Shown here: one piece after another, positions 10,092 through 38,879 of the stretch
How positions within the stretch are numbered: position 1 is the stretch's first letter
How the letters are laid out: the number at the start of each line of letters is the position of its first letter
Source of the DNA: Nemertoderma westbladi
Taxonomy: Eukaryota > Animalia > Xenacoelomorpha
Direction: 5' to 3'
Assembly: GCA_032718475.1 (NCBI GenBank)
Contig: JAUCBJ010004237.1
Location: 608 to 64,607 of the forward strand
DNA: 64,000 bases
The notes under the pieces: generated by a model
Told to the model about the DNA's origin: nothing
The model's input: only the letters and a program-made list of their open reading frames with translations
Database searches by the model: none
Translations under genes and position numbers: made by a program

Positions 10092-10254
10092 TGGAGTTAG
10101 AGAAGTGTTTAGTCGTCCAAGCTTTGGACTGAGGGGGGTGGGATTGAGGGCGAGACGCCCTTCCAACACATAAAAAAAAAATAATAAAAAAAATAAAAAT
10201 AAAATAATAGTACATAGTAGGTACGCAGTTAGTAGGCAGAAGTTAGTCAGTAAG

Positions 10255-10790: not shown

Positions 10791-11291
10791 AGAGAGTAAG
10801 AGGTAGAAGGGTATATAAGATATAGATATTAGTTAGCAGTTAGTAGCGAGAGGGAGGCATATGAGTACAGTTGGGTAAATCGTGTGGCCACACGACGCAT
10901 ACTTCTGTACTGCACAAGCCCACAGAGTAGGCCAGAATGTGGATTAGAGAATAGAATAATCCATAGGCAATAGTAAGTAGTAGGACAGTAGAATTAAAAT
11001 TAAACTAAAAATAAATAGATAGATAAAAATAAATAGAATAGGGCTGAAAGTTACAAATTATGGCAACACTAGGAAAGTTATTCTGGAACATAATAAAAGT
11101 AACGGACAGAAATCGAAATTAGGGTGTATTTACTAGCTTCAGAATTAATTAGTAAGAATTTAGGCTAAAAGGGCGCAGTTAAGTAAGGAATAGGCCATTA
11201 TCGGACTGTACAGAACATCTTAGATACATCACTCATCTGTATTGCGCCTTGGTAAGGCACCACCTTACAGGTGAGCGAGTGAGTGTTCGGA

Positions 11292-13834: not shown

Positions 13835-14545
13835 GTTCCCAGGGCCGGGGGGAGAGAAACTGAGACTTGGACGTGGTACGCCTGGAAGGCGCCGCGTGGG
13901 ACGTACGAACTATTAAGTACAAATTAAGCTGATGCAAATAATTAAATAAGTGCAATTATATGTACGTACGTAGTAATCAGTAGTTTAGCAATAAAATATA
14001 CGTTCGGAGTAAGTACTATAGTCATACAACCTTTCTCAATTAGCTACTGGGACTGGGGGGATAACTGACTATGGCACTATGAATGAGACACCAGACGATT
14101 TCACACTTCTTGAGTGCGACGGCACAAGAGGGGGGGGGGGGGAGATTCGTCAGAAGGGATGAGGTAGTCGAAGCGGGGTTGAGGGACGGAGTAATAGTGC
14201 GAAGTGCGGAGAGAGTGCGGACGCAATTCTAGTGTGGGGGGGGGGGGGAGAATAAGAGGCTGAGTGAGGGACGAGGAGGTCCGAGGGTATGAGAGAGTTA
14301 GGGTGAGAGTGGAGAAGAGATAGGGCGAAAGTGTTGGGGAAACAAAAGTCGCGTGAGAGGTGAGCGCGATCGGCCCGACATGGACGCCAGGCATACAGGG
14401 TAGCGTTATCATACCCATAGGGAGCAGCCTGGAAAGCCGGCTCCGAGAGAAAAGAATTCCACCCCACACCCGATACTAGATCGGGATCCAGCGGGATTGT
14501 AGCGCACTTAAGGTGGATGCTATCTTCTCACCGGGAAGATAGCAT

Positions 14546-14554
14546 GGGGGGGAG
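14546..14554 (+). other. Polypurine tract
   Basis: GGGGGGGAG directly abutting the 3' LTR. Confidence 0.85.
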
Positions 14555-15099
14555 TGTTAGCTTATTCAATCCCGCTAACACCCCATAAAAGTTAAGCCGA
14601 TAAGCAATATTGGGGGCCACGAGATTGGGTAATCACCAACTCGTGTCACCCCAATAAAATGGGAAGGAGAAACACAATGAGGGTCAGGGGCCAAACCCCT
14701 AACCCAGAGAGAACAGGTGGAGTGAACGGGAACACTCCAAAGGGCGCCAACAAGGGTATCAACCAATCAGAGGGGGGAAAGGCATCGATTAGGTAGAGTA
14801 ACAAGGCCAACCCGTGCAATATAGCCAGTTGGCAGTAATCATTTCATTCAGTTATCTCAGTATCATATTGGTGCTAGTTAGGTTAGTTAGTTTAGCTAGG
14901 GAAGGACCGGGACTTTAATTACCGTATCCCGCCTTCCGTATACGACAACATTATCCATATCTATGCTTATATCTATATACCCGTACAACCGATTATTATA
15001 TACGACGAACGACACGAACTCTTTTTACCTTTCACACACGGCGGGGACGCGTGAACTAAACAACCGGATAAACCGGGATCCTTCCTGGATCCCGTCACA
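14555..15099 (+). repeat. 3' LTR of the BEL element
   Basis: 545-bp direct repeat of 2674-3218, followed by TSD TCAAC. Confidence 0.97.
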
Positions 15100-15653
15100 T
15101 CAACAGGAGTCACGACATTGCGGCGCCTGTAAACTGTTTGGCCAGTTGGAGCAGGTAGAGAAGTGGTATTTTCAGTTTCCTCTATCGAAAAAGGACCAGG
15201 TGGTTCTGCCATTCGTGTCTCAACTACATTTGTACGGTTAGAATCTACCAGTGGTCGTTTTGAATGATGTGCTTGTTCATCTTCGGAAGAAGCCTGAGGT
15301 GGGCCCATTCGCTTGTACAATGGAAAATGGTGGCGCCTTCTTGCGGATTCCGACTTGGGGACAACCCGAGGAGTCAAATTTAATAGTTGTTCGAACCTAT
15401 AGCCAAGTCTCTTCATGTCTCTGGCCTTATTCAATATCACATTAAACTCTTCATCGCCTAAGAAACCATGGGTTAGTATATTTACATCACATAATTGTCC
15501 TTCATAATTCACCCTATAGTTACCACCTTGAAGCTTTGGCTTACCGTCGTAATCTTCTACCTCAGACGATAAATCAACAATGAATATTGAATTGTCCGCC
15601 CTGCAGTACACAATAGCATTTTTGTAGGTATCATCAACGTCATTGACATCCAT
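15100..15653 (-). pseudogene. N-terminal half of the DUF4806 accessory ORF
   Basis: ORF starts at ATG 15653, runs into the LTR at the TSD and resumes in frame at 2668. Confidence 0.75.
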
Positions 15654-15668
15654 ATTTAATAATAATAA

Positions 15669-17606
15669 TTACTTTCTATTACAGAGTACTGAAACATAAA
15701 ACAGATCATGGTGAGGAAAACAGATAAACCAATGGAATGACTCTATTATAGTTTCTATGACTGAACCATACCTAAATAAACCCTCCCCATACCGATGACT
15801 CACACATGGAGATGAATATAGATCAGCCACATGTTCAAGTTTATTTCCTGAAACGTTAATACTCTGAATATCATAGGAAACTAATGACACTATTATGACG
15901 CATTTACTATCATTTACATAAATACAGTTTCCCCTTTTCAATTTCACTACTTTGATTTAAGTCTTCGTTTCAGAATGGACATGTAGGATTCGAAATGGAA
16001 TGCGCTCCATTTATCCAATGCTCCAAATTTCTCAACATAATCAACAATGTGGGATAAAATGTAAACATTATACGTATACATGATAGATGGTGTATAGAGT
16101 TCAGACAACTTTGAATGAAAATTGTTAATTAGATCTCGTGCATACGAAGTATATATTACGTTAGAAGCCAAATCATTTGACACTAAGATTTGGACAGTAA
16201 CATGGAGCATCATAAGATTATCAAAATATAGCTTTGGGAGAAATTCTTTCATGAGTGGACTGGCATATAGTAAGAAGTTCCTAAATTCTGAAGCTTTAAA
16301 GTGTTTTAATTCGTCAAATCCACGTAATTTTCGATTAAATATTAAAGGCATATATCTTCCAAATGATTTGAGAATAGAATTCAGATCACATTTCCTACTT
16401 GGTCGAAGAGCACATGGCAAAGGCATAGTACGACTACAAATGAAATCGGTAGAGACCCAACTACTGATCAACTGCTTCACTACACCCAGGCACACATATA
16501 CAGTGCATGTATTCTGGAGGTACAGATGATACAAAGCCAAATAAATTCCTTAAAGGTGATAAACTTTTCTGGTGGACTGTATCTGAAATGGAAAGATATT
16601 CGTGATCTGTTCGAGGAACAAAACCGCTTCCCGGAAAAATGTTCTTTGTATTTTCAATATTACGAGCACCATAAATTTTACAATATGTGCAAGAACCATA
16701 ACCAGAATGGCCTTTATTACACAGTAGCCAGGTACAAGCAGGGACATCTGCAATAAGAAGCATTGTTATAATGTGATTCGAAAAAACATAGTCTATAAAC
16801 AACTTTAAATACTCTGAAACATTGTAAGGTTTACCACTTGGTCCAACCCAAAGCGCGATTACAAATGGAGGTATATTTGATCATAAATACAACCAAGTAT
16901 TGGCCAATATGAAGCATTTGATAACTTAGTCCATGGAGTGCCATCAATGTTAATAACAATTTGCAAAGAATGATAATCACGCGAAATTCCAAAAAATCTC
17001 ATATATCCCCCAGAGCAGTATGTGATGTCTTTTTTGGAAGGATATAATGTTCTATTGCTATCTAACAACAGCAAATTATGATGATGACGAAGGGTTTCGG
17101 TAGATAACGGTAAATCTGGATGACCGCTAATTTTCAAAATAGACAATAGTGATGAAAATGCCCAGTCGGAAACGGTAGCAATTAGTGTTTAGCCAGCTTA
17201 GGAGACAACAGCACAGCTTGTCATTTTTAACATACATATCATCATTGGAACTGCACATTTCAATAACACTATCAACTGATAATACATCACTTTCATCACT
17301 ACTACTGTCCGAATCACAATGACTAGCTTCTGACAACTGACTAGTTGTAGTCATATCTATATCTACAACTGCTGTGCAAGCTAAAGAATTAATCGGTATA
17401 CCGGTATTGATATCGGTATCATCATTTATCAGAATATTTTGATGAAGCTGCTCTGGAGCTATAGCCAATGTGTCACCTTGACTGTTCTGGTTTTCGATTA
17501 CCGCTACCGGTACTGGAATAATCGAATCGGTAGGACTATGTAAAAAAGGAATCTCATTTGCTATCTCTCTTTGTTGGCTCCGAAATAATGACGACCTTGA
17601 TGACAC
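15669..17606 (-). pseudogene. EnSpm/CACTA-type (animal) transposase, frameshifted
   Basis: INIDGTPW...YWPILG; ADVPA...KGHSGYGSCTYC; EYMH..CLGVVK; FNRKLR...FKASEFRNFLLY; YNVYILSH...FGALDKWSAFHFESY. Confidence 0.85.
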
Positions 17607-18537
17607 ACTACTGACGTAGCTTTGGCAGTATGGTGTACTGGGAGACTGGTATCGTTAAAATAGACCTAAAATAGGCTAATCTTCTTCGGGAATAATTAAT
17701 CCGGCACAGTCTGGCGATCTGGCACAGTCGGCACAAACTAAAATCGGAAAATAAACTAAAATAATAGGCCTACGCCTACTACTACCGGCTGACCCGTACC
17801 GGTACCGTACTGCGTACCGTACTGTCAGACTGTATTAGAGTAGGCCTCAGGCCTACAGTAGTGGGCAGTAGAAACATTTTGGCACCTGGCATGCCATGGT
17901 GGAATTGTTACAAGAAACCTAGAAGTTTCTTCCGCGCATTTGAGAAATGCGCGGCTTAACGCCGCCTAATGACGATTTTTCACCGCACAGCGGAGCGTGA
18001 CAAGTCTATGCCGCCGAACCCACTTGGTGTGAATCTGAAACTGAACTGAGTAGGGCCTACCGGTACCAGTATTGAGTAGCCTACCGGTACCGTGAATGTA
18101 CCGTAGCAATGCAATTTAGCAGTTCAGCAATTAAATCTGCCACCATCTGTAGGCCTACCCTACAGGTCTATGTCTATTGTCTATCTGTCTATGCCAATCT
18201 AAAACTATGCCATTTAAAAAATTTCCAATCGCTCCGCTCGCATTTACATTCGCTAGGCTATTTCATATTTAAACATTTAAAGTACCGGTACCGCAATTTA
18301 TTATATACTAGAATAAACTATAATTTAAAAATCTTCTGGCATCTTCCATCTTCCACATACATTGTGGAAAATATACCGAGCCAGCGTATTTTCTTACCAT
18401 AGGGAGGCCTGTATATGCTGAATTGCTGACATCATGCCTTCCACGTACTGCATACAGACGTAATAGTAAAAATACAGAAGTACGCGGCGTATCTTCCGCG
18501 TAAATTCAAGCAATTCCAGTCTGGCTGGCGTAGCCTT

Positions 18538-18612
18538 GCACGGAGCCGGCGCAAGGTTTTTTCACCCGGTGTGGCTTTGCACAGAGTTGGCGCAGGATTT
18601 TTTGCACCCGGG
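18538..18612 (-). repeat. Possible EnSpm terminus with two subterminal direct repeats
   Basis: GCACGGAGCCGGCGCAAGGTTTTTTCACCCGG and GCACAGAGTTGGCGCAGGATTTTTTGCACCCGG. The minus strand begins CCCGGGTGCAAAAAA. No partner end found. Confidence 0.35.
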
Positions 18613-18896
18613 TCGCTTTCGGCGCAGGAAACAGGAAATTTAAACTTTTCAAAAGAGGGTACCGGTACCGGTAATCAGTGTTAAAAAATTGTCTAGAAAA
18701 TCGTAGGTCCAGTACCGGTCACCGGTACCTAGGTGGTGTGTACCAAATTAATTTGAGCCGCTTCTACTAATGTACGGGCACGACGGTTGCCAGAACCGGG
18801 TGCCGGGTACTATGCCTACAGTTTATAGTACCGGTACTACCATAGAACCTACTAAGTTTACAGGACGATATTTTTTTTAATATATATATTATATAT

Positions 18897-20395
18897 AATA
18901 TAAGTTTAAATTAAGTAAAAAAAGTTAGGGAATATGACTGTAGGGTGTGAGATCAAGTTGTTTTAGTATAATAATATAAATCTTTTTGGAATAGTCATAA
19001 ATTGGAAGTTGTAACTCGCCGCGCACCAACCTTAAAGAATATCCTTGCGCCATCCAGACTGAGGTGTACAACTGAGGTGTACTTCATCTAGTGATTTTCT
19101 AGGAGTTCATAAATGTGACAGAGCGGCATGTGTCCCCTGTAAAGTATTATTACCTTTAAAATATGTCAGCTCAACAACTAACAAAAGCCACAGGGTTTAT
19201 ATAAAGAATGATTTATCTTGCAATGCTAAAAATGTTATTTATGTGGTGACTTGCCTTAAATGTAACTTATTTGGTATCGGTTCAACAGAGGACTTAAAGC
19301 CTAGGATAGCCAACTACAAGACAAAGATAATTAATGACAAACCATCGACTGCCATCGACAGACATTTTACTACCTCGGGTCATTCGTACAATGCACACTT
19401 CAGAATTACACCATTTGATTGTCTACCGATCTCAGCAAACAAAAAACTGAACCGACAAAAACTCAGAATTAAAGAGGGAGAATGGCAGTGCCGGTTGGAA
19501 ACTTTACAACCAATGGGTTTGAATGTTCTCAACAAGGCGGTGATCAATAACTTTGGACTTGATGTTTTCAATCCTTAAGAATTATAAAGATTAAAGATTC
19601 ACAAATTCAACAAACTCATTAGTTGCTAGGGTAGTATTATTATTTGTAGTGCAATAATTCTAGAATATCGTTTATTTGAAAAAGATAGAGAGAGCTATCG
19701 AAAGCTAATAATAAAAAAATAAATTTTTAGTGATTGATCATATAAGTTGTCACTTTTTGAATTCTTAAAATATTATTATACTAAAACAACTTGATCTCAC
19801 ACCCTACAGTCATATTCCCTAACTTTCTTTACTTAATTTAAACTTATATTAATTTTTGACTGTGGATGAATGGCGATTGTACCAAGAATTTTGTTCCTAC
19901 AATTAATAAATTTAGGCTCGCAACTAATTTTGGGTCAACTTCAAAGATAATTTCTTGAAAATTGCAAGAAGCACAACGTAATACCGAAGGGTTTGAGGAT
20001 TTGCTTAAACCTTAATTTACCTGGTAATTCTATTCATTTTGAACAGGTTCGCATTAAAGCTAAAAATAATATTTTTAAAGCCGAATTAAATATTTTGGAA
20101 GTTGTTTCTCTTCATGCCGAGACGAGGCGAAGACATTTTCTTAGTCTTTTTATGAGAGCTAAATCATCTGCTATCACCTATGATAATTCGAATTCAATCT
20201 TGTCCCGCGTTTATGATCACATGAAAAACACTTCTCGTACAGTGAGACAGCGTCTGATAAAAAAGTGGAACAGTTTAATGAATGAAACCCGCTCTGCTTC
20301 AAGCCCCAACAATGTTTTATACGATAATTTGTTATCTCATAAAAGACATAAACCTGGACCTCAGAGATCCGCACAACGTAGACTTAATTACTTAA
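18897..20395 (+). mobile_element. Penelope-like element: inverted pLTR piece, GIY-YIG C-terminus, pLTR, then N-terminus of the next tandem copy
   Basis: 18897-18977 is the reverse complement of 19770-19850. KCDRAACVPC...LSCNAKNVIYVVTCLKC..GIGST...HF...EGEWQCRLETLQPMGLN. N-terminal motif FLENCKKHNVIPKGL at about 19950-19995. Confidence 0.88.
19671..19714 (+). ncRNA. Minimal type-I hammerhead ribozyme in a Penelope pLTR (U3:A8 variant)
   Basis: TTTAT-TTGAAAA-A-GATAG-AGAGAG-CTATC-GAAA-GC-TA-ATAATAAA. A second copy with a stem mismatch lies at about 22217-22260. Confidence 0.6.
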
Positions 20396-21801
20396 CCCTA
20401 TTAAACCTGGGGGGGTGGGGGGGGTCAATATGACCCCCCCCGTGGTTTTTTTATTATAATTCTGAAACAAACGCAGTTGGGAATCTGAAATTTTATGACT
20501 TTTCCTAAAAATCTATTGTCTTCCTAGTAGTGAAAACCGTTTTCAAAAATATTGGGTACTTTTCGAGTTATAGCACCATTTTTTAACCCTACTTTTGGCA
20601 CTTTTTTTGAGACGTTTTTTGAAAATTACATTTCATTAAATATGAATTGTAACATCTCTATTTTTGATTTACACCGTTTTTTTGGTGTTAGAAATTTGAT
20701 GGAATTCATATAAATTGATTTAGAAATTTCGAACTTGTTTTTTTCGGTGGGTGCCAAATTTTGGTGCCAGCACCAAATTTTGAATTATGTCAATTTTGTA
20801 ATTTGATTGTTTGAAACTTGTTTTTTACGCAATTGGGGTTTTTTGGGGTTCTGGATTCGATGAAATATATACGAGTTGCACCAAGCGTATCAAACTTGTA
20901 TTTTTCGGTGCTGTGTGCAAATTTTGGTGCTAGCACGAAATTTTGAAAATTCATTCGATAGATAAAATTGCTTGTGACAATTTATTTCTTGCGTTTTAGA
21001 GGTTTATGGCTGTTCTGAATTCAATGGAATAAATAATTATCGAACTAGACATCTTAAACTTGTATTTTTCGGATGTGGGTGCAAAATGTGGTGCTAGCAC
21101 CACATTTTGCACCCGCTTCCGAAAAATACAAATTTGAGATGCCTAGATCGAAAATTATATATTCCATTCAATTCAGAATAGCCATAAACCTCTAAAACGC
21201 AAGAAATAAATTGTCACAAAGAATTTTATCAATTGAATGGATTTTCAAAATTTTGTGCTAGCACCAAAATTTGCACCCACCACCGAAAAATACAAGTTTG
21301 ATACGCTTGGTGCAACTCGTATATATTTCATCGAAACCAGAACCCCAAAAAACCCCAAATGCGTAAAAAACAAGTTTCACACAATCAATTTACAAAATTG
21401 ACATATTTCAAAATTTGGTGCTGGCACCAAAAATTGTCACCCGCCGAAAAAAACAAGTTTGAAATTTCTAAATCAATTTATATGAATTCCATCCAATTTC
21501 TAACACCAAAAAACCGGTGTAAATCAATAATAGAGATGTTACAATTCATATTTAATGAAATGTAATTTTCAAAAAACGTCTCAAAAAAAGTGCTAAAAGT
21601 AGGGTTAAAAAATGGTGCTATAACTCGAAAACTACCCAATATTTTTGAAAACGGTTTTCACTACTAGGAAGACAATAGATTTTTAGTAAAAGTCATAAAA
21701 TTTCAGATTCCCAACTTCCCAACTGCGTTTGTTTCAGAATTATAATAAAAAAACACCGGGGGGGGGGGGGTCATATTGACCCCCCCCCGGGTTTAATAGG
21801 G
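20396..21801. mobile_element. piggyBac-type non-autonomous foldback element (1406 bp)
   Basis: TTAA on both sides (20392-20395 and 21802-21805). Ends CCCTATTAAACC / GGTTTAATAGGG. Palindromic over nearly its whole length, centred near 21096. No coding capacity. Confidence 0.92.
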
Positions 21802-22328
21802 TTAAATGTAACTTATTTGGTATCGGTTCAACAGTGGACTTAAAGCCTAGGATAGCCAACTACAAGACAAAGATAATTAATGACAAACCATCGACTGCCA
21901 TCGACAAACATTTTACTACCTCGGGTCATTCGTACAATGCACACTTCAGAATTACACCATTTGATTGTCTACCGATCTCAGCAAACAAAAAACTGAACCG
22001 ACAAAAACTCAGAATTAAAGAGGGAGAATGGCAGTGCCAGTTGGAAACTTTACAACCAATGGGTTTGAATGTTCTCAACGAGGCGGTGATCAATAACTTT
22101 GGACTTGATGTTTTCAATCCTTAAGAATTATAAAGATTAAAGATTCACAGATTCAACAAACTCATTAGTTGCTAGGGTAGTATTATTATTTGTAGTGCAA
22201 CATTTCTAGAATATCGTTTATTTGAAAAAGATAGAGAGAGGTATCGAAAGCTAATAATAAAAAAATAAATTTTTAGTGATTGATCATATAAGTTGTCACT
22301 TTTTGAATTATTAAAATATTATTATTAT
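21802..22328 (+). mobile_element. Second copy of the Penelope GIY-YIG C-terminus and pLTR
   Basis: Near-identical to 19256-19779. Ends in (TA)n. Confidence 0.9.
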
Positions 22329-23724: not shown

Positions 23725-24035
23725 CCATCTGCTATTTCCCCAGATGAATTTGGAAGATATAGGGATGACATTTTAGTTTTATATTTACATGATATAGATT
23801 TAAAATTAAAACGATTAGTTGAGGATTTAAATGATCAAGTAAAGCCAAGACAAATTAAATTCGTTACTGAACAGATGGGGAGAGAAGTTAATTTTTTGGA
23901 CCTCAAAATTTTCATTGACGCCCATGGAACCATTCAAACTGATATTTTTTTCAAACCTATGGACGTACATCAGTAATGGATAGGACTTTGTCTCACCCAC
24001 CATCTCAGATCAAGTATGTACCGTATGGTGTAGCT
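23725..24035 (+). pseudogene. Penelope-like RT fragment
   Basis: RYRDDI...IKFVTE...VNFLDL...TDIFFKPMD...SHP...KYVPYG, with a stop at 23974. Confidence 0.85.
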
Positions 24036-24064
24036 ATGTATGTATGTATAGTGATGAGCTATGT

Positions 24065-26026
24065 ATGGTGATGAAGTGTCGAAATGACCTCTACAAGGCG
24101 CAGAAAGAGTCCCGACTCAAACAGACTACAGCGGCCAAGAATGTAGTTAAGGCTGCATCTAGGTCCCTGAACAGGCAGTACTCTGTTAATTTACAGGAGC
24201 TAATAAACCAACAGGTTGATACCATCAATGATGCTGACGACAGCAGGCTATCATCCCAGGCATGGAGATCGATCAACTTGCTTGCTGGTCGAAAAAGCCA
24301 ACCAACCACCAAGGTTAAGGCTGAATCACCAGCCGATCACCTCAATGGTTGGAAGGCCCACTTCGAAAAGCTCCTCAATAATGACAGGGTATTGCCTGAT
24401 AACTTTATAGAAGTAAAAGTTTCTGAGTCTGTACTCCCAGATATTCCCATTGGTGATATCTCCTTTGCAGAAGTGAAGGCTGCTGCAAAGAGCATTAAGA
24501 CCAATCGTGCCAGTGGAGTAGATGGTGTTCCCCCTGAGGTCTTTAAAATACGTGAGTGTTTAAAGCTCATCTATCCTATCATAGTTGACATGTACCGAAC
24601 AACAAGAGTCCCACAAGAAATGAAAACAAATAAGTTGGTGCCAGTTCCCAAGAAGGGTAACCTAACACTCAATGGTTCTTTTCGGGGAATCTCATTGATC
24701 TCGATTGCTGCAAAGCTATACAATAGAATTCTATTAAATCGCATCAGGGATCCCATTGAGAGACTGCTCCGTGGAAATCAGAATGGGTTCTGTAAAGGTC
24801 GTGGGACCATGGAGCCTATTTTGGCACTTAGAAGGATAATTGAAGAGTTATCAAAAAAGAAAGACAGGCATCTGGCTGTTATCTTTGTTGACTTCTTCAA
24901 GGCCTTTGATTCAGTCTCTCGCTCACGTATGTTCAGCATACTTTCATTATATGGGATTCCTGATGAAATTATTGCAGCAATCAGATCAGTATACGATGGT
25001 TCGACAACATTTGTGTCTACGTTGACGGTGACACAGAACCATTTGAAGTGTTATGGGGCATCCTCCAGGGAGACACACTTGCACCATTCTTGTTCATAAT
25101 TGTTGTTGACTATGTTCTACGCATGTCCTTAGATCATCATAATGATGATGGGGTGATGATAACTCCACCTACTGGCTCCAGAAGTCGAGGAAATCCTGCC
25201 AAGTACCTAACTGATCTAGACTTTGCTGATGACTTAGGAGTAATCTCAGAATCACTAGAGGGAGCCCAACGGTTCATTAGAACATGCTGCTTCTAGTGTT
25301 GGTCTTTTTATTAACTCCAGAAAGACCACAATTTTGACAGTAAACTTTGAAAGTCCTCAGCAAGTCTCTGATCGAATGAGCATAAGCTCAAAAGATGGTA
25401 TGCTTGAGCATGTGGATGACTTCTGTTACCTGGGATCATGGATCCGGAAGTCAGGCGAGGACCTTCAAATACGTAAGGGAAAGGCATGGGCAGCCTTGAA
25501 TAGGCATTCCAGGATTTGGAAGTCACCGAGAATTAATCGGACACTTAAGGTCCGATTATTTAGAGCAGCAGTAGTTCCAGTACTCCTCTATGGGAGTCCA
25601 TGCTGGGCTCTAACTGCTGAGGACACCAAATCTCTGGATGGCACTTTCACATGAATGCTGCGCTGGGTTCATTGTGTCAAGTACAATGCACACATCTCCA
25701 ACCAGACACTATATAACATTGGAGGTGTCTCATTGGTTCCCCCAAGCTTGACACTAGAACAAAATCGCCTCCGCTTTGCAGGACATTGCTTTCGCTGTGA
25801 GGACCAGCCAGTGCATAATCTTGTACTTTGGCAGCCTCATGGAGTGAATAAGCATGGTGGGCAGCCCATGACTTTCTTGAGACGCATCTTAAAGGACACT
25901 GGCCTTGAAGATGCGGATGATCTAGCAAATGTCATGGGTGATAGGGAGTTGTGGCAGTGCAATTTTGTCGATAAGCCGGCACAGCTTAAAAATGCAGCTG
26001 CAATGCAGCATGCCGTTCCTAGTAGT
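24065..26026 (+). mobile_element. 5'-truncated RTE-like LINE (RT domain, frameshifted) with a (TAG)n tail
   Basis: ASGVDGVPPE, PVPKKG, FRGISL, QNGF, FVDFFKAFDS, ILQGDTLAP, DFADD, FCYLGS, LLYGS, LRFAGH. Lesions near 25030, 25290 and 25652. Confidence 0.9.
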
Positions 26027-26395
26027 GGAGGCTAGACAGGATACCAATTAGCCTTCCCCAGTTTCCAGCAGCTGATGTTCATATACTAATACCAGTCTGC
26101 AATCTGTATATAAGTTAGTTTGTGAGCCATTTAATATTGAGATAAAATTCAATGTTTGTTTTAAAACTTAATATAATAGAAAGTTTGTAAATTCCAGTAA
26201 AATATTTCATATATATAATACAGCAATATATATAGTTATGTTATTATTAATCAGTTTTTTCTATGTATATATAACATCATAATAAATAATTCAAATGTTT
26301 CTAACACTAAACTAAACGAAGTTCTATGTAGTTAAAGTAATATTTAATATAAGGATTATTATCTAACCAATCTAATCCTAATATGCTTAGGTCTA

Positions 26396-26987
26396 TTATA
26401 AAGTAAACTGAGATATTAAATGTATAAATTTTGGTAAAGTTAAACTAAAATTTGAAGGTGAGGTCATCCAGGTCATATTACCACTTGCAAATACACAAAA
26501 GGTTATTGCTTTATCAAAACGCACTAATATATTACAAAATATTTCTGGCTCATGGAATATTTGTATATGTGTATTATTTTCTATATGGAAGCCAACCTGA
26601 TATGCAAATTTTGTAAAATTAATTTTATATTTGAATACATATGTATGAGAATTTATACAGTATACCTCTAATTCCATTTTAGTTATTAATTTGATATAGT
26701 TTAATACCTTATCAATGGCCTTATCAATATATTTACAATGGCCTAATATTGTTACTTTTCCACCAGCAAAAAATAAAACAGTATATTCATATATTTTAAA
26801 TATAAATTGAATTGGTTTCTGATGTAGAACACCTTTAGATGGTTATTAAGTTTGTTTAAATTAATTAGTTGTTTTATTTTTGGTCTACAACTTATATTAC
26901 TATTTATATTGTATAATTTGGTATAGCTGTAGGAATCATAGATTCCAATTTACTAAAAGTAGGTTCATCTAATTCAGAATCAGACAT
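26396..26987 (-). pseudogene. TATA-binding-protein (TBP)-fold gene, two frameshifts
   Basis: Repeat 1: NISCRPKIKQLINLNKL...KPIQFIFKIYEYTVLFFAGGKVTILG. Repeat 2: SHTYVFKYKINFTKF...HEPEIFCNILVRFDKAITFCVFASGNMTWMT. Compare TBP TALIFSSGKMVCTG and YEPELFPGLIYR...LIFVSGKVVLTG. Confidence 0.65.
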
Positions 26988-26994
26988 AATTAAA

Positions 26995-29900
26995 CTATAT
27001 TAATACTGGTTGATGATATTGATGAGGAATTGGTCGAGTTACTCCTGTTTTATAATGTCCAAATGGCAAGGAAGTGTTACCATCATGCCACCAACGTTTA
27101 TCATCAAACAAATTTAATGATCTCTTTATTTCTCTGAGGATCTATAATTGGTGTAGCTTGGATCCTATTTTACGACTTTCTTCATAGAGCTGAGTGGTCT
27201 CCCTATAACTAGTTAAGTATGAATTATGAGTTAACTTTTTATTTATTACTGGTCTTGTAACTCCCTTAGCTGCTTTTTTATCCTCACCACCCTTAAAACT
27301 ATATGCTTTAGGCTTTAATAGGACCCATTCGGTATATTCCATTCCCTTGTTTTCATCTTTTACCATATTAAGGTCACCTTTATTTAAAGTACAGTATAGA
27401 GGATGATTACTGTCATAGAAGTATCTAATATCTTGCGATCTTTCATCGCCTTCAAAAATTTAAGATGTGAAATTCCCTTAATAATTATAAAGAAAGAGTC
27501 TGTGTCACCACATGCTATCTGTAATGTACAGTTTAGTTCTTTTTCTAATGGTTTCAGTTTGTCATACAACAATGAATACATACTTAGTTTCGATAATGAC
27601 AGTACAGCTTCTCCAATATATATTTGTTTATTCAAAGTAATCTTTGTTTTAGATAAGGTGTGCCCACTTAGAGAGTCTGTATATATATCAAAGTGCTTAT
27701 GGTTTGGCTTTGCTAAAATCTGCTCACATTGATATTTATTATTGCATAATCTAAAGTTCAAACGGTTCCTCAGGTTCTCCATTGTCTTACCAAATAATAA
27801 ATTATTTAATAGTTTATAAAAGTCTTTTTCAAATTTATTTTTGGCATTTTTACGTTTATCAATATTGAAATATATATAATCACGAAATATATGACCTTGC
27901 TTGAATTTATATAATCTGTGAATTTTTGTAACTTTCATTCCATGACATAAATAAAACTTAAGCAGTTCTAAATGGAGACCATATGCAACCTTATTAAACT
28001 GATTAAGCAAAAGTTTTTCTGTAGAGTGGTATTTCTTAGCCTGGGAATTTGTTTCTGTAGATGTTGAGGTTTTATTGTGTTGATTCCATAGTTTTTTTTT
28101 TTGATAATCACTCAAAAATTGTTCACATGGTTGTAATTTTTCAGGACAAAATGGTAAGTCTGCAGACATGCAAGTCATGTATGTGATCAGGATGATCTAA
28201 GTCTAACTGCTAGGTATCCAATTTCACAAGAAGTGTCTAAACCCATTAAATCAATAGTATCAATATTAGTCATTTGTATGTAGTCAGAGCAAGGAAGCTT
28301 TTCTGCTAAACACCCAGCATAATAAATACTTAAACATTCAACATTTAATAAATGACACTCTGGTACTGAAGTCTTATAATTGTCAGTGCCAGTTATGTTT
28401 GCCTCTATATAATGTGTATTTATATATGTCATCCTACCATGTATGGCCTTCTCTATATCGTCATATATATCATGCTTGCTTAAGAGATGTAATTTTGTGT
28501 TTGTGAACTTTAATTCTGCATCCCAAGTCATGGAGGAAGCTGTTGTTAGGAAGTGGGCTGGATCTAAACCATAGTTATTAAAACAAAGTTGGCGAAAATT
28601 TTAAAAAATGAAAAATGTCAGCTAGTAAACAAGTATGAAGGTGCAAGTATGCTATTAAATAGTCAAATAATGTATTACAACTAAACATTGACCAAGATTT
28701 CTATGCCCTATTATAATCTTCAGGTTCACAGTGACTTAACATTAATTTACTATAGAATTGTTCGATAGGTGGAAGGTGTGTCTGATCTAGTTTGTCAAGA
28801 CTAGTTATAGCCTCATATGGGAAGACTCCCTTGCTCTTTAGTATATCATCTGATACTGTAGGGTATAATGTTCTATGTGTTGAACTGTATGAGGAAGACT
28901 TAGAATCAAGTTAGTTATATCATCTGTCAAGAAAGAAGCAAGTTGACCTAAAGAATGGGCCATAAAATTAAAGCTGTCTATAATTTGTATATATATTTTA
29001 TTGATGTTGGTGTTTGGTTCATTAATTTTGTATGGAATTGTACCTTTTATAGTTATTTACTTTTCAGTAGTTTGTGCAATTGTCTCTATTTTCCAGTCTG
29101 AATGTTGATTATTTGTAAATGCTTGAGTTAGTATAAGATGACTGTCGATGCCCTTAAAGTTATGAAATACAACTGCCATATGATTTATTTTTAAATTAAT
29201 TTTCTATTGCATTTATGACAAGCAAAAAAAGCAAAAAAAGCATTTCAGCCCTACTTACTTAATACAATTTTATTCTTTGTGTTTTCTAGTGACCAAGTAT
29301 AAAGTTCCCTGAAATGATTTTCTAGAGATGTAAGAAAGTCATCTATACAGTTAGTTGTAGATGTTTGTTTGAAGGTAGCTAAGGATTGTTGAGGAGGGCC
29401 AACTAATTCTTTGTATGGGATAGTAAGGTAGCTGTAGCAAGCAGCAGATGGTTGCAATACATTAGTATATTTAACATGATCATTTGGTTTAATTACACAT
29501 TCGAAGTCAGCATAATGTAATTAATGGCAATGGGATTGTTCTATCAAATCTTGTAAATTTTACATTTAGCTGAGCTCCAGTTGGCATTGATGTAGCCAGC
29601 CGGTGGTTTTAATTGGTAACAACGTATTCTGTGTTCTTCAAGGGCATTGCTAGTATAGAAACCACGGAGACACCTTTCACATCTCTTGCAATGTGTATCA
29701 CTTCCATCCCCTGTCATACTGTTCAACAGTCTATCTTTATTGCTTGCTTATGGCATAATAGTGCCTATAATAGTAATAGTACATAATAGTATTAGTGCCC
29801 ATAATAATGCATAATAGTTGCTCACTTCTTTTTTTCTATGAATAATAAGTTCAGTAGTTCTTTTCCTTCTATCTTTTTACCTTCAGGCTGTCGTCATATT

Positions 29901-32126
29901 TCTACTTTATTTTCAGTGTTATACAGTAGTAAATTTATAGCTACGTTTTTGTTTTTTCTTTCAAATCTGTCAATATCATCTTTACAGTTAGTTGGAAATC
30001 CTACGTCACTAAAATCAAAGTAATTTTCCCATTGATTGTACAAACTCTTTCTATTATAATTAATTGGTATTTGTTTATGAAATTTGGCACAAATACAAGC
30101 ATCTCTAAAACATTCAGATTGGTTTCCACCTTCTATATTAATTATACAGTGTTTGTCTCTCTGTGTTTTAGGGATAAATGCCCCTTTTTTTTTAATTTTA
30201 TTTTTTAAATGACCCTTTAAATATATGTCTCTACTATAGCTAGCTACCCTTACTTCAATATTTGATACCCCTAGTATATACCAGCCAGAACCACGAGTAA
30301 TAAAATTTGCAACCTATTCTAAAATATAAGCTAGGCTATCTCCAAACCAGTAGTTAAATTCTGATTCGCTTTTAATTATATTATCACTATTTCCTCTAGA
30401 ATTAAAAATAAATATAGCCCCATCCCTATTTCCATCACCATCCTCCCTATCCATATCTACATACTGATAATGTCATCCTAATAAATCTGTGTGGTTCTAT
30501 CGTATCTATATCATGCATGTTAATATTATTTGATATTTCAAAAATATTACATACATTGTTTTCATTTTGTTGCAGAATCCCCTCAATGTCTGGGTTGTTC
30601 CCATTTATCTCACATCTAAAGTACTTTAGACACCCATCATGACAGTTTCGCCTCTCGATAAATGTATCTTCACCTTCGTGATCATTAATGTCAAGTTGTG
30701 GCAGTGAATGTGGCGGCAAAGATGACAATGGCATCTGATGCTGATATGGTAGAGGTAGTGGCGATTGTGGTGGTGGTGGTGGAATCAGAGGTGATGGTAG
30801 CAGAACTGGTGACTGTGACAGAGGAAGTGGAGGTGGTGGTGCTGTCCTCAGTGGAGAAGTTGGTAGAGATAGCGTAGGTAATGGTTGTGGCATCAGCAGT
30901 GGCATTGTTGATGGGGGTAAAGTAGTAGTAGGTGACGATATCTGAGCAAGTAGTGGTGATGCTGGTGCAAGTAATGCTGGTAAAGGTGATATAGGAAGTT
31001 GAAGTTGTAAGCTTGACTTCAGCAATGGAGATGGTGATCTAGAGCTTGGTTGTAACAAAAACTGAGAAGATGAGATAGGAATGGCCACTTGAGGCTGATC
31101 TATTGAAGCTGTAGCAAACTGTACTGGTGGCCTACTGATCAGATCAAATTGTGTAGTCATTGGTGGAGGTGGTATACTATACGGGATTGGTGGTATACTG
31201 ATTGGTGGCGGGATAGTGTATTGAACTGATGGTATATCCATGGTATCCAGGGTTGAAATATTACTAGGACTACTACTACTACTAGGATCGGCATGCTGCA
31301 TTGCAGCTGCATTTTTAAGAATGCTGTGCCGGCTCATCGACAAAATTGCACCGCCACAACTCCCTATCACCCATGACATTTGCTAGATCATCCGCATCTT
31401 CAAGGCCAGTGTCCTTTAAGATGCGTCTCAAGAAAGTCATGGGCTGTCCACCATGCTTATTCGCTCCATGAGGCTGCCAAAGTACAATATTATGCACTGG
31501 CTGGTCCTCATGGCGAAAGCAATGTCCTGCAAAGCGAAGGCGATTTTGTTCCAGTGTCAAGTTTGGGGGAACCAATGAGACACCTCCAATGTTATATAGT
31601 TCTGGTTGGAGATGTGAGCATTGTACTTGATACAATGAACCCGGCGTAGCATTCTTGTGAATGTGCCATCCAGAGATTTGGTGTCCTCAGCAGTTAGAGC
31701 CCAGCATGGACTCCCATAGAGGAGTACTGGAACTACTGCTGCTCTAAATAATCGGACCTTAAGTTTCCGATTAATTCTCGGGGACTTCCAAATCCTGGAA
31801 AGCCTATTCAAGGCTGCCCATGCCTTTCCCTTACGTATTCGAAGGTCCTCACCTGACTTCCGGATCCATGAGGTCAGGTGGACTACTAGGTTACTAGGAC
31901 TAGTTGATGGTTTAAAATGCTTGGAAGGGGGAGAATGGTCTGGATTGGATATTATTTGTTTGTCGCAATAGTGATGTAGGTAGTTGTCTAGCATTAACAT
32001 GTTCAAACAAGTTGGGCATTGTTGTGTAGAGGATGTTTCTCGGAAATGCTGTGTGCACAAGTGGCGGGGGTAATTTTTCTTTAAAGTAGTTATGGGGCAG
32101 AAGGCGCATTGAGATTGTCGATTCAT
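26995..32126 (-). pseudogene. Polinton/Maverick/adintovirus-type protein-primed family B DNA polymerase, heavily decayed and interrupted by a LINE
   Basis: Motifs in order: RGSGW, INIE...CF, GFP...FE, CERCL...H...C, ADFEC, FHNFKGIDSH, IDSFNFM, KGVFPYE, YGLDPAHF, FYKLLNNLLFGKTMEN, GDTDS, KDE...KPKAYS, KAAKGV, DDKR...PFGHY. Confidence 0.9.
31273..31890 (-). mobile_element. 5'-truncated RTE-like LINE, same family as 24065-26026
   Basis: High identity to about 25436-26025. (TAG)n tail. 12-bp TSD TTACTAGGACTA at 31261-31272 and 31891-31902. Removing it restores KPSTSPSN|ISTLDTMD in frame. Confidence 0.93.
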
Positions 32127-32702
32127 TTCTAAAAAAAATAGAAATGCACATAAAATATTATGTTGCTCGCAAGAATTTTTTTATTTCTATTAGACAAACC
32201 TTCAATATAACTGTATGACATCATAATATATGAAATGGAGTAAGGGAAAGGCGAGAAACAAACTGACAAAGGTATGTAAATCTTTAGCTGTCAGTATATT
32301 CTTGAATGGAATTTTGTTAGAAGTGGACTCCTTCCATTCAAAGTTTCAGAGCTTTAACATTAGGCAATGCTTGCAGTATTTGGTTCGTTCTAAAAACAGA
32401 TTTCATGTGTGAGCATAGTTCCCCATAATGTGTTACTTATATTACTATATTACTATTATTATTACTATTATTTATATGACACTTACTTGAATTATTAACA
32501 AATGTTTCATTAAATTTTTGTTCAGAATAATATAGATCTCTCTTTTTCTTCAGTATTTATCTTCTTCTTCTTCTTCTAATCCCTTGAATGATTGATTTTA
32601 TCAAAACGCGTAAAGATTAGTTATCAATGAAAGCTTAATGATACTATAATAATAATAATAATAATGGTATCGGATAAATACAATTATGTTCGAAATTTAT
32701 TA

Positions 32703-32899
32703 ATAGAAATGTTTTTAATATTTGGAGCTCAATAAGGCAAATATATTTCGATTTATATTAAAATCATTATCAATAATAAGCACTATAGGTAGGTTGTAAG
32801 TATGTTATGAAATTGTTATAATTACTTGGTATTTCTAGCAAACTGCGATATACTAACTGTACCGTACATTATACAACATCTGTATGTGCTGATATGCAC
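32703..32899 (-). repeat. Inverted repeat arm (Penelope pLTR-like), partner at about 37851-38047
   Basis: About 197-bp reverse-complement match. Contains a hammerhead-like core TTGA(C/T)AA-T-GATTT...AAATC-GAAA-TA-TA. Confidence 0.8.
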
Positions 32900-32907
32900 C
32901 AATTGTA

Positions 32908-33254
32908 TTATTACCCATTAACCAATCAAGGCCCACCACTCTGTCACCCCTATTATTACCTCACTGTATTTCTACAGCTTACCGAGCTCAACATTACTCA
33001 TTCACTATAGTTGATCTCATTTCTGCAGTTTCCCAAATGGAAACTCCCCCTATTAACACTCTTTATTACATTGTATTCTTGACTCTTACGATATTTTTAC
33101 GTTTATATTATTAGATCTCTTATTATGTATTCATGTTCTTGTATTTCCGTATATCTTATTACCCCTTACCGCTTATAATCCTATATTATTATCTTATATA
33201 TTGTCTATAATAAATACGCTCCTAATTGCCAATCAAATAAACAAATTATTCTTC
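32908..33254 (+). repeat. Partial duplicate of the solo LTR at 37308-37808
   Basis: Direct repeat of about 37455-37800 with few substitutions. Confidence 0.9.
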
Positions 33255-33371
33255 ATGGGATGTAACCGTGTAAACTGGGTGAAATCCATCTATAGTTGAA
33301 CATATTACAATCACATAGATCATCTTATTGTTTTATACACAAGAGCATATCAATCGCTCTTACAATCGCTC

Positions 33372-36300
33372 TTCTGTCTTGATTGAAGTGTCACTAAGTA
33401 TTCGCGTACCCAGCGGGTCCAAAAATGATTGGCTAGTAACTGAGCCTGGCGCCATTTACGAGTTGAGTATGTATCACTGTCATAGATGGGACCTGGTGGT
33501 AAATTGTAAGCAGGGCGCTGTAATAGAAGGTGGTTCGGAGTTAAGATTTCATCAGCTTTAGGGTCATTGGTACTAAGGCACAAGGGGCGGCTGTTTAGAA
33601 TGCACTCTACTTCTGCTAATGATGTCACTGACATGTCATCTGTGACAAGAGAATTGCCAAGGACCTGAAACAGAACTTGTTTGATTGAACGGATCAGCCA
33701 TTCATATACACCACCCATATGGGGGGTGTACGGTGTTATAAATTTCCATGTAATGCCCTTTGGGCGCAGGGCAATATCGATCTGATGTTCCCATAGTTCC
33801 AGGTTTTGCCGTAATTCTGACTCGGCACCTACGAAGTTTCTCCCATTGTCTGAAACTATTTCCTTTGGCGAACCTCTCCGTGCTTTAAAACGGAAGAACA
33901 CATTGATAAAGGCATCAGCTGATGCATCAGCAGCTACATCGAGGTGTACTGCTCTGCAGTTAAGGCACGTAAAGATAAAGGCATAACGCTTTATAGAACC
34001 TCTCCCGTATTTGACCTTTAGTGGACCAAACATATCAACGGCTGAAAACGTAAATGGCGGCTCATATGGGGTCAGTCTAGAGGACGGCAATGGCGCCATA
34101 AGCTGATTCACACGTGGAGCCTTACATTGCCGACATTTAAAGCACTTACGTATTAAAGACTTGCAGAAAGTGATAAGGCCAGGGATCCAATAGGATTCCC
34201 TTACCTTGGCAACTACTTGGTTGGGACCGGCATGTAATAAATAGATGTGCCAGTGCCATACTATGACATTTGTAAGTGGGTGTAACTTACTCAAAATTAT
34301 AGGGTGTTTTGTATCGTAGGATACTGGGGCGGAGGTAATGCGGCCACCTACCCGCAATAAACCATCCTGAGTTAGGATTGGGGCTAGATTAGCTAGTGGG
34401 CTTGAGCAAGCTACTGGGGATGATTGCAGTAACATTTGAATTTCGTTAGGATAAGATTGCCTCTGTGAGAAATAAATCAGACATCGTCCAGCATGGTGAC
34501 GTTCACTTACCGAGACAAATTTACCTTTAAGATTTAAGACCGAATTTGGATTTAAAGAATACTTGCAAAGACGTAAGATCCATGCGAACAGAGTCTGTAA
34601 TTTATTCCATGACGAATGTTTAGCTATAAGTGAACCTATAGCATTAAATGCTGTGTTAGAATCAATGTGGACATTAAGAATTATTTCAGAGTCAGGATTG
34701 TGGTATGGTGTCTGTTCTTCGACAACTATGTCAAACCAGAAGTCTGTCATGGTGATGTCATCGTTATAATCAATATCAGATGACACCAATATATGAGAAG
34801 TTAGCACATCTGGGTTATTGATTAGTGTATTAGTAATAGTTTCTGGGCATATGGTTGATACTGTCGTCCATGTTTCCTCGGGCTGAACGAGAAAAGGAGG
34901 CCCATGCCACAATTTCTGTGAATTAATGAGCTTGACTGCTGTAAGCCCACGAGTAATGTCGTCTGCAGGGTTTAAATGACCAGGTACATGTTGCCATTGT
35001 GAACTGGTTGTACGATCAAGGATATACTTAGTGCGGTTGTGAACAAAACATCGAAATTGCTTGATGGTGTTGTTTATGTACCCAAGTACGACAGTAGAGT
35101 CTGTCCAAAAATAACATTTAGCGATTGGTAAGTCTAGGGATTCTAACACAGTTTCACTTACCTGCGCTGCTAAAACTGCAGCTTGGAGCTCTAATCGAGG
35201 AACTGAATGTCCAGAGGCTGTACGAACTAACTTACCTTTGCTGAAAACGAAAGATGAATTTATTTCATTATCACTTACAGATTGGATGTACAATACTGTA
35301 CCGTAGGCCACTTTAGAAGCGTCTGAGAAAATATGTAGCTGGTAGTTGATTGGAACCGAATGGACGGGGATGTACATCCTAGGGATTTCCAGTTCGCTAA
35401 GCATAGGAAGTTGATCTCGCCACTTCATCCATTGACGTGCTGTATCTGGTGGGAGTGGGGTATCCCAGTCTAATTCCATTGACCACATTTTTGCTATAAC
35501 TAATCGACCTGCTATGATTAATTGGCAAGATAAAGTTAATGGGATCGTACAATGAGCTAGTCAAAGAGACGCATCCCCGTTTAGTTAATGGTGTGTTTTT
35601 AAGCACATAGGAGAATATGAAGTTATCTGAATTTGTGTCCCAGGAAACTCCAAGGGCACAGGTTATAGGAAGATTATCAAAATCTAAGTTAATGAAGGAT
35701 TTTGCCTTTTCTGAATCGGGAAAGGCATCTAGGAATTGTCTAGAATTGGAGGCAAATTTTGTAAGGTGAAAGCCACCTAATTTGAGGCAATCTACCATCC
35801 CAGAAGCGATGTGAATAGCTTCAGAGACAGATGCTGCACTTTTGAGGCCATCATCCACATACATGTGGCGATTAATGGCATCAATCACCTCCGGGTTAAA
35901 ATGACTGGCATTATCAATAGCAGTTCGTTTGACTGATCCTGATGCCACAAAGGAAGAATCGCAAGCACCAAATATATGTACTAACATTTGGTAAGTCTCC
36001 ACTGTGGTAGAGCCATCGGGCTGCCACAAAAAGCGAAGACTATCGGCATCGCCTGGTGTGACTCTCACCTGGTGGTACATTTCCTTTATGTCGCAGGTGA
36101 AAGCCACAGGATATTGTCTAAAACGCAAAAGAATTCCAATAAGGCTACTGGTGAGATTAGGACCTTCTAACAGTTGACTATTGAGGGACATCCCTCGGTA
36201 TAAGGCAGCAGCATCATTTACGATCCTTGTCTCACCAGGCTTGTTGGGATTCTCAACAAAATGATGGGCGAGGTAATATGTCTGTGGCCCTGGTGTTATC

Positions 36301-37307
36301 TCACATGGTAGGAGTTTGCGAGCATAACCCTTCAAGACATAATCGTCTATTTTTTGTTGATAAAGGGCATGGATATATATGTGGCTTACGATGTAGCTGA
36401 CGGATTAAATATGCGAAACTAGATTTTGCCATATTATAATTATTAATTAATAATGGAGGTGAGTCCCTCCAGAGCATTCCTACCTGATAGTGACCATCCA
36501 CTAGACGTATTGACTTAGAAAACATTTCTAATGCTTTTAAGTCATCCATGGATGGTGATAGAAACTCATCGATCAGGGGTGAGGGTTTTGGGTCTGAAGG
36601 TGAACTTTCAGCAAAACTCTGAAATTTCATCCATTGAGTGACCTGTTTAGAGATGTCGCGGTCTGTGCAAGGGTCACTGACTGTGATGTGATTAAACTGT
36701 GTTACTGTACTATTGGGTTCAACTGCTTTACAGCTCACAGGACCGATTATGCACCATCCAAATGGTGTCCTAATTGCAGAGGGATTAGGGTTCCCAGCCT
36801 TTGGGAATACATGTACATCCCTAGCTAGGGCCTCAGGATGGTTACCACCAACCAGAATTGTGATTGATGGGATATCAAGATTAGGGCAGCATGTCACATA
36901 TGGCAATATGTGATCTAAGTGCTGGAGCGTTTTAGGACACAGTTGTGTTACATCATATGAGTAATCCCTTTTGAAATCGGGGGCTACAAATACTTGAGGC
37001 ATGTTGATGACAAAATTGGGTTTAATTTCTGGCTGTCCTTTGATAGGTGAGATACTACATGATATTTCCCCTAAAGAAACAGACATATTTGATTGGAAGA
37101 CAGTACTAACATTAAGAGAAGTAGTTTCGGGAATGATACCAAGAGTATCAGTTACATTTTTGTCAACAAATGTCGCAGTAGACCAATCAGTGCATCAGAG
37201 CAGTGCATATGTAGTGAGTGATTTATTGGCAATGCATATGGTTACTGGGACTACTGATAACCATACGGGTTGTACTTTGGCAATTGATAAGTGTACAGAC
37301 ATGGAAT
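33372..37307 (-). mobile_element. pol: Internal fragment of a second BEL/Pao family (protease-RT-RNase H-integrase), frameshifted
   Basis: TPFGW, RIVNDAAA, DIKEMYHQV, MYVDD, YDP, FSDAS, PRLEL, WTDS, NPADD, HHCC, AVDMFGP, SDNGRNF. Confidence 0.93.
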
Positions 37308-37808
37308 TGTACGATGGAACTGAAACATTATTACAGTTACATTATTGGCTGCCCCCATTCACAGCCGTTTATCCTATACAGATAAACAGCTGTATTATTC
37401 CCTTCACTCCTGTTCAGCTACATTAGGTAGGTATCTCCACTGCGCTACAACCCCTTATTACCCATTAACCAATCAAGGCCCACCACTCTGTCACCCCTAT
37501 TATTACCTCACTGTATTTCTACAGCTTACCGAGCTCAACATTACTCATTCACTATAGTTGATCTCATTCCGCAGTTTCCCAAACGGAAACTCCCCCTATT
37601 AACACTCTTCATTACATTGTATTCTTGACTCTTACGATATTTTTACGTTTATATTATTAGATCTCTTATTATGTATTCATGTTCTTGTATTTCTGTATAT
37701 CTTATTACCCCTTACCGCTTATAATCCTATATTATTATCTTATATATTGTATATAATAAATACGCTCCTAATTGCCAATCAAATAAACAAATTATTCTTC
37801 TTTATACA
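37308..37808 (+). repeat. Probable solo LTR (501 bp)
   Basis: TGTA...TACA ends, AATAAA near the right end on the plus strand, flanks GGAAT/GTAAT (5-bp TSD with one mismatch). Confidence 0.65.
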
Positions 37809-37850
37809 GTAATAATGTAATGGACAATTGTATGTGTAATATTCAGTCAG

Positions 37851-38047
37851 TGCATATCAGCACATACAGATGTTGTATAATCTACGGTACAGTTAGTATA
37901 TCGCAGTTTGCTAGAAATACCAAGTAATTATAACAATTTCATAACATACTTACAACCTACCTATAGTGCTTATTATTGACAATGATTTTAATATAAATCG
38001 AAATATATTTGCCTTATTGAGCTCCAAATATTAAAAACATTTCTAAT
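37851..38047 (+). repeat. Inverted repeat arm with a hammerhead-like core at 37976-38007
   Basis: Reverse complement of 32703-32899. Confidence 0.8.
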
Positions 38048-38879
38048 AATAATAATAAAAATAAAAATATTAGGCTAAAAACTGAAAACTTTTTACCTGT
38101 AACTCGACAGAGTCAAATATGTAAAGTGATGATCTGATTTGTGTGTTGCTCTTATGTGTTTTAGTGGAATTTTGAAGGAATTTTCTGGAGTGCCAATTGG
38201 GTTGTATCGGGAATAGGTTTGAATCAGATGAAATAATAATCATGGAACAATAAAAAAATTACATGATGTCACTAGGGGGACCAAGTCTGACCATGTAGTT
38301 GACCAGCATTCATTCATGGGTTGTTTAAATGCGACCAATAAATTTAAAGGTTATGAGACTATGAAAAAATCAGACAGTAGACAAGTAATTTTTGACAGAA
38401 TGTTGAAAAAGTTTAAGATTGTTAATGTCTGGAGAAAAGCCCATTGCTCTATATTATTGTGTTCCTTATTAAAATAATTAATCGAGTTTATCTGTCTAGA
38501 CCTGCCTCGATCAATGAAAAATACGTGATTACCCTTGGTGCCATTGTGACACATCATTCATGATTATACTAAGAGTATACTAAGAGTATACTAGAACCGG
38601 AAATGTCTGATATGCCGCGGTTGAAAGGGGCAATTAGGATTTCATGACAACTCCACGTGAAACTTGAACTGAATCAACATCCAGTCCCTTTACCGTTATG
38701 GTTTACTAAATCATCCGCTTGTAAGTTATCAAATCTGACTCAAATAGATAACTTGGCAGTTTACATACACAACGTGAGGATGATTGGTAGACTGATACAA
38801 CAACAATTAAGGAATTACTCCAGTTGAAGTACTACAACAAAATTGGGAGACCACATTACTCAAACAAGGTTATTCGATT

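Follow-up and report, generated by a model that had tools for sequence, protein, structure and literature searches.

The locus studied here lies in a 64,000-nt stretch of Nemertoderma westbladi DNA (GCA_032718475.1, contig JAUCBJ010004237.1, positions 608 to 64,607), referred to below as the window. It is a two-gene Polinton fragment consisting of a broken DNA polymerase gene and a TBP-like gene (Table 1). The original prediction placed an ATG 7 bp behind the polymerase stop and on the same strand, and this junction is confirmed on the minus strand. A LINE 3' piece has inserted into the polymerase gene, with the 12-bp target sequence duplicated on either side of it (31261-31272 and 31891-31902). 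The segment on the far side of the insertion is read as the likely start of the polymerase ORF because it is Cys/His-rich, like the C2H2 zinc-finger starts of its relatives; the Pro/Ser-rich linker on the near side gave no match in a Pfam scan. Profiles made from relatives detect no integrase, packaging ATPase, protease, capsid or penton gene in the 64-kb window. No inverted pair brackets the remnant within 18000-45000, where the sole nearby pair is made of two LINE pieces, and the ends of the element may have been lost.

Table 1. Features of the Polinton remnant, other repeats of the window, and the ORF overlapping the TBP-like gene in related elements
Feature	Position	Strand	Evidence or remarks
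AT-rich non-coding tail, TBP-like stop to LINE 3' end	26030..26395	.	element remnant ends here; terminal repeat not found
TBP-like pseudogene, main open piece (148 aa + stop; most of lobe 1, whole lobe 2)	26396..26842	-	PF00352, family profile, model, Foldseek
TBP-like middle piece, other frame; probably first strand and helix of lobe 1	26836..26904	-	weak profile match (2.5 bits), three-frame translation
ATG and 27-codon acidic N-terminal piece, then stop	26904..26987	-	translation
7-bp spacer, polymerase stop to ATG	26988..26994	-	junction bridged by contigs of other copies
Polymerase stop TAG	26997-26995	-	
Broken protein-primed family B DNA polymerase body, many frame pieces	26995..30313	-	relatives, tblastn pieces
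Pro/Ser-rich linker, inferred N-terminal part of polymerase ORF	30447..31260	-	open frame; partly covered by 4190-nt contig of another copy
LINE 3' piece (high-copy) inserted in polymerase gene	31261..31902	-	95-96% match to LINE at 25428-26026
Likely start of polymerase ORF (ATG 32126), Cys/His-rich	31903..32126	-	translation; covered by contig of another copy
BEL/Pao retrotransposon	32697-38052		direct LTRs about 32908-33254 and 37455-37800; inverted pair 32697-32908 / 37841-38052
Fold-back element	20412-21794		two arms
Similar fragments	19063-19578 and 21780-22124		presumed Penelope end
LINE	23984-26026 and 31261-31902		AGT-repeat tail
GC-rich ORFs behind first BEL/Pao pol	11183-13552		567 and 256 aa
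ORF overlapping the TBP-like gene in related elements	L074 7511-8158; L035 1896-2558; L033 4842-5489; L040 8810-9565		

The window as a whole is repeat-rich, and BEL/Pao and LINE-type ORFs dominate it. The BEL/Pao retrotransposon directly upstream of the remnant has direct LTRs that are 98-100% identical and is itself enclosed in a 212-nt inverted pair (97%). The fold-back element is composed of two 621-nt arms, 95% complementary and without a spacer, with subrepeats of about 164 nt and G/C-run ends. Two fragments that are 99% identical, the former lying between 82-nt inverted repeats and lacking a Pfam match, are presumably the GIY-YIG endonuclease end of a Penelope element. The LINE carries a short AGT-repeat tail, and the summed depth over its 3' part (near a million, against about 20-130 in the flanks) reveals a very high-copy family. 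The GC-rich ORFs behind the first BEL/Pao pol belong to no Pfam family and are possibly an extra ORF of that element.

Out of 2130 candidates, 602 match a 270-aa polymerase piece at E<=1e-10, the best at 5e-58. Many of them carry PF03175/PF02945, and the best named ones are arthropod. The gene is of the protein-primed family B class that marks Polinton/Maverick elements and adintoviruses; the window copy is broken. A single-sequence search of viral contigs with a polymerase piece returned no match (0/10).

From its ATG to the final stop, the TBP-like gene occupies 592 nt, or about 196 codons, without need for an intron. This agrees with the intronless product of about 195 aa that had been predicted and fits the family length (median 175 aa), but the gene is broken by two frame changes, one near 26905 and the other near 26840. 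The frame that opens at the ATG stops after 27 codons, and the rest lies in a second and a third frame. The gene is therefore a pseudogene that makes no protein, and its true start is uncertain. Since contigs from two studies, one of which may be the source sample, are identical to the window across both breaks (0 differences over 26000-27303), the frame changes are not assembly errors.

The motifs named as TBP-like repeats in the original prediction (TVLFFAGGKVTILG, HEPEIF and FCVFASG) all lie within the single 148-aa open piece (26842-26399). This piece matches PF00352 at 26.5 bits with one repeat counted (E 5.8e-6), above the cut-off of 22.9, and is alone among 11 local pieces in exceeding any Pfam cut-off. 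Scored with a profile of 120 relatives, from which the window was excluded, it reaches 43.6 bits (E 3.8e-13), against 0.0 bits for the second-best location in a six-frame translation of the window. The middle piece, bounded by frame changes at both ends, matches positions 7-27 of the family profile. Single-sequence searches with the 148-aa piece found nothing among PDB sequences at E<=10, nothing in a separate set of candidates (0/8), nothing at E<=0.001 in a collection of 1.84 billion representatives, and nothing in viral contigs (0/7). In the ESM Atlas, TBP clusters account for 30/30 matches (best 0.94), a weak result with a recognition value of 1977, below the bar of 2300.

The predicted fold is that of a TBP, as the original prediction had anticipated. 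Modelled with a 106-row alignment, the piece, which lacks the first strand and helix, reaches a pLDDT of 81.9 and a pTM of 0.57, and the model is a two-lobed saddle. A Foldseek search with it returned 34 PDB matches at E<=0.001 with TBPs at the top, and the matches listed to rank 40 are all TBP chains (about 160 columns, TM 0.45-0.62, rmsd 4.3-6.4 A). Its structural neighbours in BFVD are viral TBP-like proteins, including HaV TBP and an ASFV B263R homolog. When folded without the alignment, the model has a pLDDT of 42 and a fold search with it is meaningless. We are highly confident that the feature is a TBP-fold gene of a decayed Polinton-type element.

Other copies in the same species, about 87-90% alike, span the polymerase-TBP junction (X1 record 2, 26804-27551; X3 records 14 and 15). 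A further copy, represented by a 4190-nt contig that spans the polymerase, is probably free of the LINE. Retention of the junction in other copies indicates that the linkage is older than this insertion.

Relatives gathered through the polymerase comprise 26 viral and 80 metagenome loci (106 in total), the latter being the best 80 of 493 from a scan that took in 22 of 64 parts. Among the 4407 ORFs of these loci, the window TBP piece matches proteins of L052 (E 1.7e-5) and L074 (E 1.2e-4), and the profile recovers intact TBP relatives in five of the 106 (L033, L035, L040, L052 and L074). Four intact relatives were included in the Pfam scan; they match PF00352 at 46-56 bits with two repeats each. 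The L052 protein has 35 PDB sequence matches (best E 1.4e-11), and nearly all of these are annotated as TBP or as TBP fusions. Of the loci with an intact TBP relative, the long ones are L052, L074 and L040, which carry an integrase with chromodomain, an ATPase and virion-module genes and are full Polintons; we take some of the latter genes to be capsid and penton, labels for which there is no Pfam match. In the Polinton L052, KilA-N, phospholipase-A2-like and C2H2 genes form one same-strand block (11226-18626) in which four genes end in a CA-TAA-AC context. In four elements, a conserved ORF read in a different frame shares about 290-385 nt with the TBP-like gene (Table 1). This ORF has no Pfam or Atlas assignment, and a 'PC4-like' label for its L074 version found no support and was dropped.

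A search with a profile that included the window piece retained 338 of 1009 candidate proteins at E<=1e-5, and PF00352 is found in all 120 of these that were listed. It must be noted that 120 of the 125 relatives compared below come from a word-seeded search biased to the YEPELF motif, with element context verified in five of the 125; the motif also occurs in all five relatives found through the polymerase alone. Among the viral records, Pfam TBP was found in none of the 6 searchable of 26, and family-alignment scans of viral contigs returned two near-canonical TBP contigs alone, both outside the family. The giant-virus-like contig L114 encodes a near-canonical, eukaryote-type TBP (9840-10397, minus strand; E 4e-49 to solved TBPs) adjoining a capsid-like gene. 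The sole genome-contig match, L123, arises by chance on the antisense strand of a bacterial gene. Weak phmmer matches such as L047 and L087 are not TBP either.

In the related elements, TBP is found 3' of the polymerase at a distance of 1.0 kb (L033, L035, L074), 4.1 kb (L040) or 5.5 kb (L052). It lies directly behind the polymerase in 0/106 related loci, and since other genes intervene in all five TBP-bearing ones, the 7-bp packing of the window is a local gene order. The linkage proposed originally is thus not unique to this locus, recurring in other copies and in 5/106 loci, but the direct packing is shared by none of these loci. A polymerase tree was made from the window and those loci whose alignment spans 170 residues or more (89 of 106). 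In it, the window and the five TBP-bearing loci fall in one 23-row clade (SH-aLRT 98), and five near-complete TBP-negative elements fall outside it. The other 17 rows of the clade are short contigs that extend 18-2727 nt behind the polymerase, most of them too short to judge TBP absence. From these sequences, TBP appears to be a trait of one Polinton polymerase clade. Polymerase and TBP trees divide the five loci alike, L052 standing against the other four.

A TBP tree of 74 rows (64 of the 120 proteins) sets the family and the window together apart from four reference TBPs (100/99), with the window inside the family on a long branch. In a smaller tree of 24 rows (15 of the 120 proteins), the window falls between the family and the four references (89/64, unstarred). 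The phylogeny proposed originally thus separates the family from the reference TBPs in the larger tree; with four references and a long branch, the two trees give the window copy different positions. The smaller tree, in which the window stays outside the element family while the host's own TBP is absent from the four references, leaves some room for a host TBP or TRF retrocopy that landed by chance beside a dead polymerase, in a repeat-rich region with LINE activity. This reading is very improbable and largely refuted. The window scores 3.9-6.4 bits against the four reference TBPs and up to 34.6 against element proteins, 101 of the 125 of which score above the best reference. The Pro signature and shortened loop described below are common to the window and the family, and the copies that are about 87-90% alike keep the junction. 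Moreover, the GC content of the TBP-like gene is low like that of the polymerase (0.25 and 0.29), unlike the LINE/BEL ORFs (0.43), and the window polymerase itself falls in the TBP-bearing clade.

Residue positions were mapped via L114, aligned to solved TBPs, and compared in 125 relatives. The site of the first intercalating Phe is occupied by Pro in 120/125 and by Phe in 0/125, in a shortened loop, and the remaining three intercalating Phe are kept in 124, 125 and 124 of 125. Each member of the acidic pair of the C-lobe, at the TFIIB-contact sites, is present in 124/125. The basic helix-2 patch is lost, Lys or Arg being found at its four sites in 9, 48, 7 and 22 of 125. The lobe-1 Asn is kept in 111/125, and of the basic residues that contact the backbone, several persist. 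The window copy has Pro at the first site, both Glu (E-P-E), Lys at one helix-2 site, and a Cys where 123/125 relatives have Pro after the lobe-2 Phe. The canonical set of four Phe is thus incomplete in the window (three), and the TFIIB-contact Glu pair is complete.

TBP homologues occur in large nucleocytoplasmic DNA viruses, and the standard Polinton gene set (pPolB, integrase, ATPase, protease, capsids) does not include TBP. The lack of precedent implied by the original prediction is overstated all the same, since the legend of Figure 5 in Starrett et al. 2021 (PMC8502044) labels a 'TBP' in MELD viruses with adintovirus-like PolB. Like the elements described here, these are midsize, linear and DNA-based, have this class of polymerase and include a TBP-like gene, which may or may not be of the same family. 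The gene appears there as a legend label only, the text giving no sequence analysis, distribution or mechanism, and the supplement text has 0 matches (PMC8502044). Beyond this label, a search by title and start of abstract found no study of a Polinton TBP family, although subscription journals, Repbase or figures may name the gene.

Cellular TBP (PF00352; PDB 1ytb, 1cdw, 1ais) shares with the element protein the two-lobed fold, three of the four intercalating Phe and the acidic TFIIB-contact pair. The element protein is unlike it in its low identity (about 15-22%), in the replacement of the first Phe by Pro in a shortened loop, in the absence of the basic helix-2 patch, and in being encoded by a mobile element. 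According to Ravarani 2020 (PMC7221094), the C-lobe Glu pair contacts TFIIB, and the TBPs of large viruses, which are likewise virus-encoded and without the N-lobe regulator patch, are usually accompanied by a viral TFIIB and conserve the pair at about 40%. In contrast, the pair is near-invariant in the element family and no TFIIB was found. The closest working model is KSHV ORF24, described in PMC12529657 as a viral TBP-fold factor that uses a variant box (TATTWAA) and host polymerase II. ORF24 differs in having all four Phe and none of the acidic TFIIB residues; it binds directly to polymerase II and depends on five partner proteins. The element protein, of about 175 aa, amounts to no more than a core.

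We consider it fairly probable, on sequence grounds, that intact members of the clade encode a private factor for promoter recognition, through which host TFIIB and RNA polymerase II would be brought to element genes. Such a protein would bind and bend a variant TATA-like box and plug into host TFIIB via the kept acidic pair, and loss of the basic helix-2 patch would allow it to escape from host TBP regulators. The use of host TFIIB is proposed because no TFIIB or RNA polymerase family was found among the 37 ORFs scanned in these elements. The initial notion of a Polinton encoding its own divergent TBP or TBP mimic thus stands as to the element gene and the TBP fold, but the window copy is dead and a role as transcription factor or mimic is a proposal.

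The sequences upstream of genes bear on this proposal. Words were sought in 120-nt windows in 18 loci (4 TBP-bearing, 14 not) and compared with 200 random draws. CATAAAC precedes 7/14 genes in L052 (background 0.033) and TTAAGC precedes 7/13 genes in L074 (background 0.05), and in each case 0/200 random draws were as extreme. No significantly enriched upstream word was found in L040, the third long TBP-bearing element, or in L035; TTAAG is present 33-43 nt before the TBP-overlapping ORF in L033, L035, L040 and L074. Several TBP-negative loci also have enriched words, which are A/T-only in six of seven significant cases. CATAAA is also a variant of the poly(A) signal. On the plus strand of L052, CATAAAC occurs at 11 sites, four of which coincide in part with the stop codon of the gene before them, so that the word may have a role in termination there. 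Neither word occurs near the two genes of the window, which are too few for an enrichment analysis. A TATAAA at 27054 sits in the polymerase coding sequence and carries no weight as a promoter.

A more specific and tentative version of the promoter-factor proposal, which we hold possible, is that of a minimal orthogonal promoter code. A 175-aa TBP with the Phe-to-Pro change would read CATAAAC or TTAAGC according to the branch, its acidic loop would address host TFIIB, and loss of the patch would shield it from regulators. The TFIIB-contact Glu pair is, however, the best-kept surface of the protein (124/125 each), one intercalating Phe is gone and L040 has no enriched word, all of which would also suit a decoy whose acidic loop ties up host TFIIB or Brf1/2, or which sits on host promoters, damping host transcription. 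We think this unlikely. A pure protein decoy would not need the three Phe, the lobe-1 Asn (111/125) or the backbone-contact basic residues, and two of the three long relatives have element-specific upstream words. The protein might instead be an architectural factor that bends DNA during replication, integration or packaging and takes no part in transcription, an idea encouraged by the position of the gene, which adjoins the polymerase in the window and directly precedes the packaging ATPase in L052. That position differs between elements, however, and an architectural role leaves unexplained the near-invariant Glu pair, a TFIIB contact according to PMC7221094; we judge it improbable.

The window copy is a dead fragment, yet it widens the family by a divergent branch and a new gene order. 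Intact members are natural variants for studies of TBP specificity, and the candidate boxes make the mechanism testable. Polintons have no RNA polymerase of their own, which raises the question of how expression of their virion genes is timed and achieved. If the recruitment of host TFIIB by a small private TBP with an altered DNA face is true, it would represent a third mode of viral promoter control, as against those of giant viruses, which bring their own TFIIB, and herpesviruses, which make no TFIIB contact.
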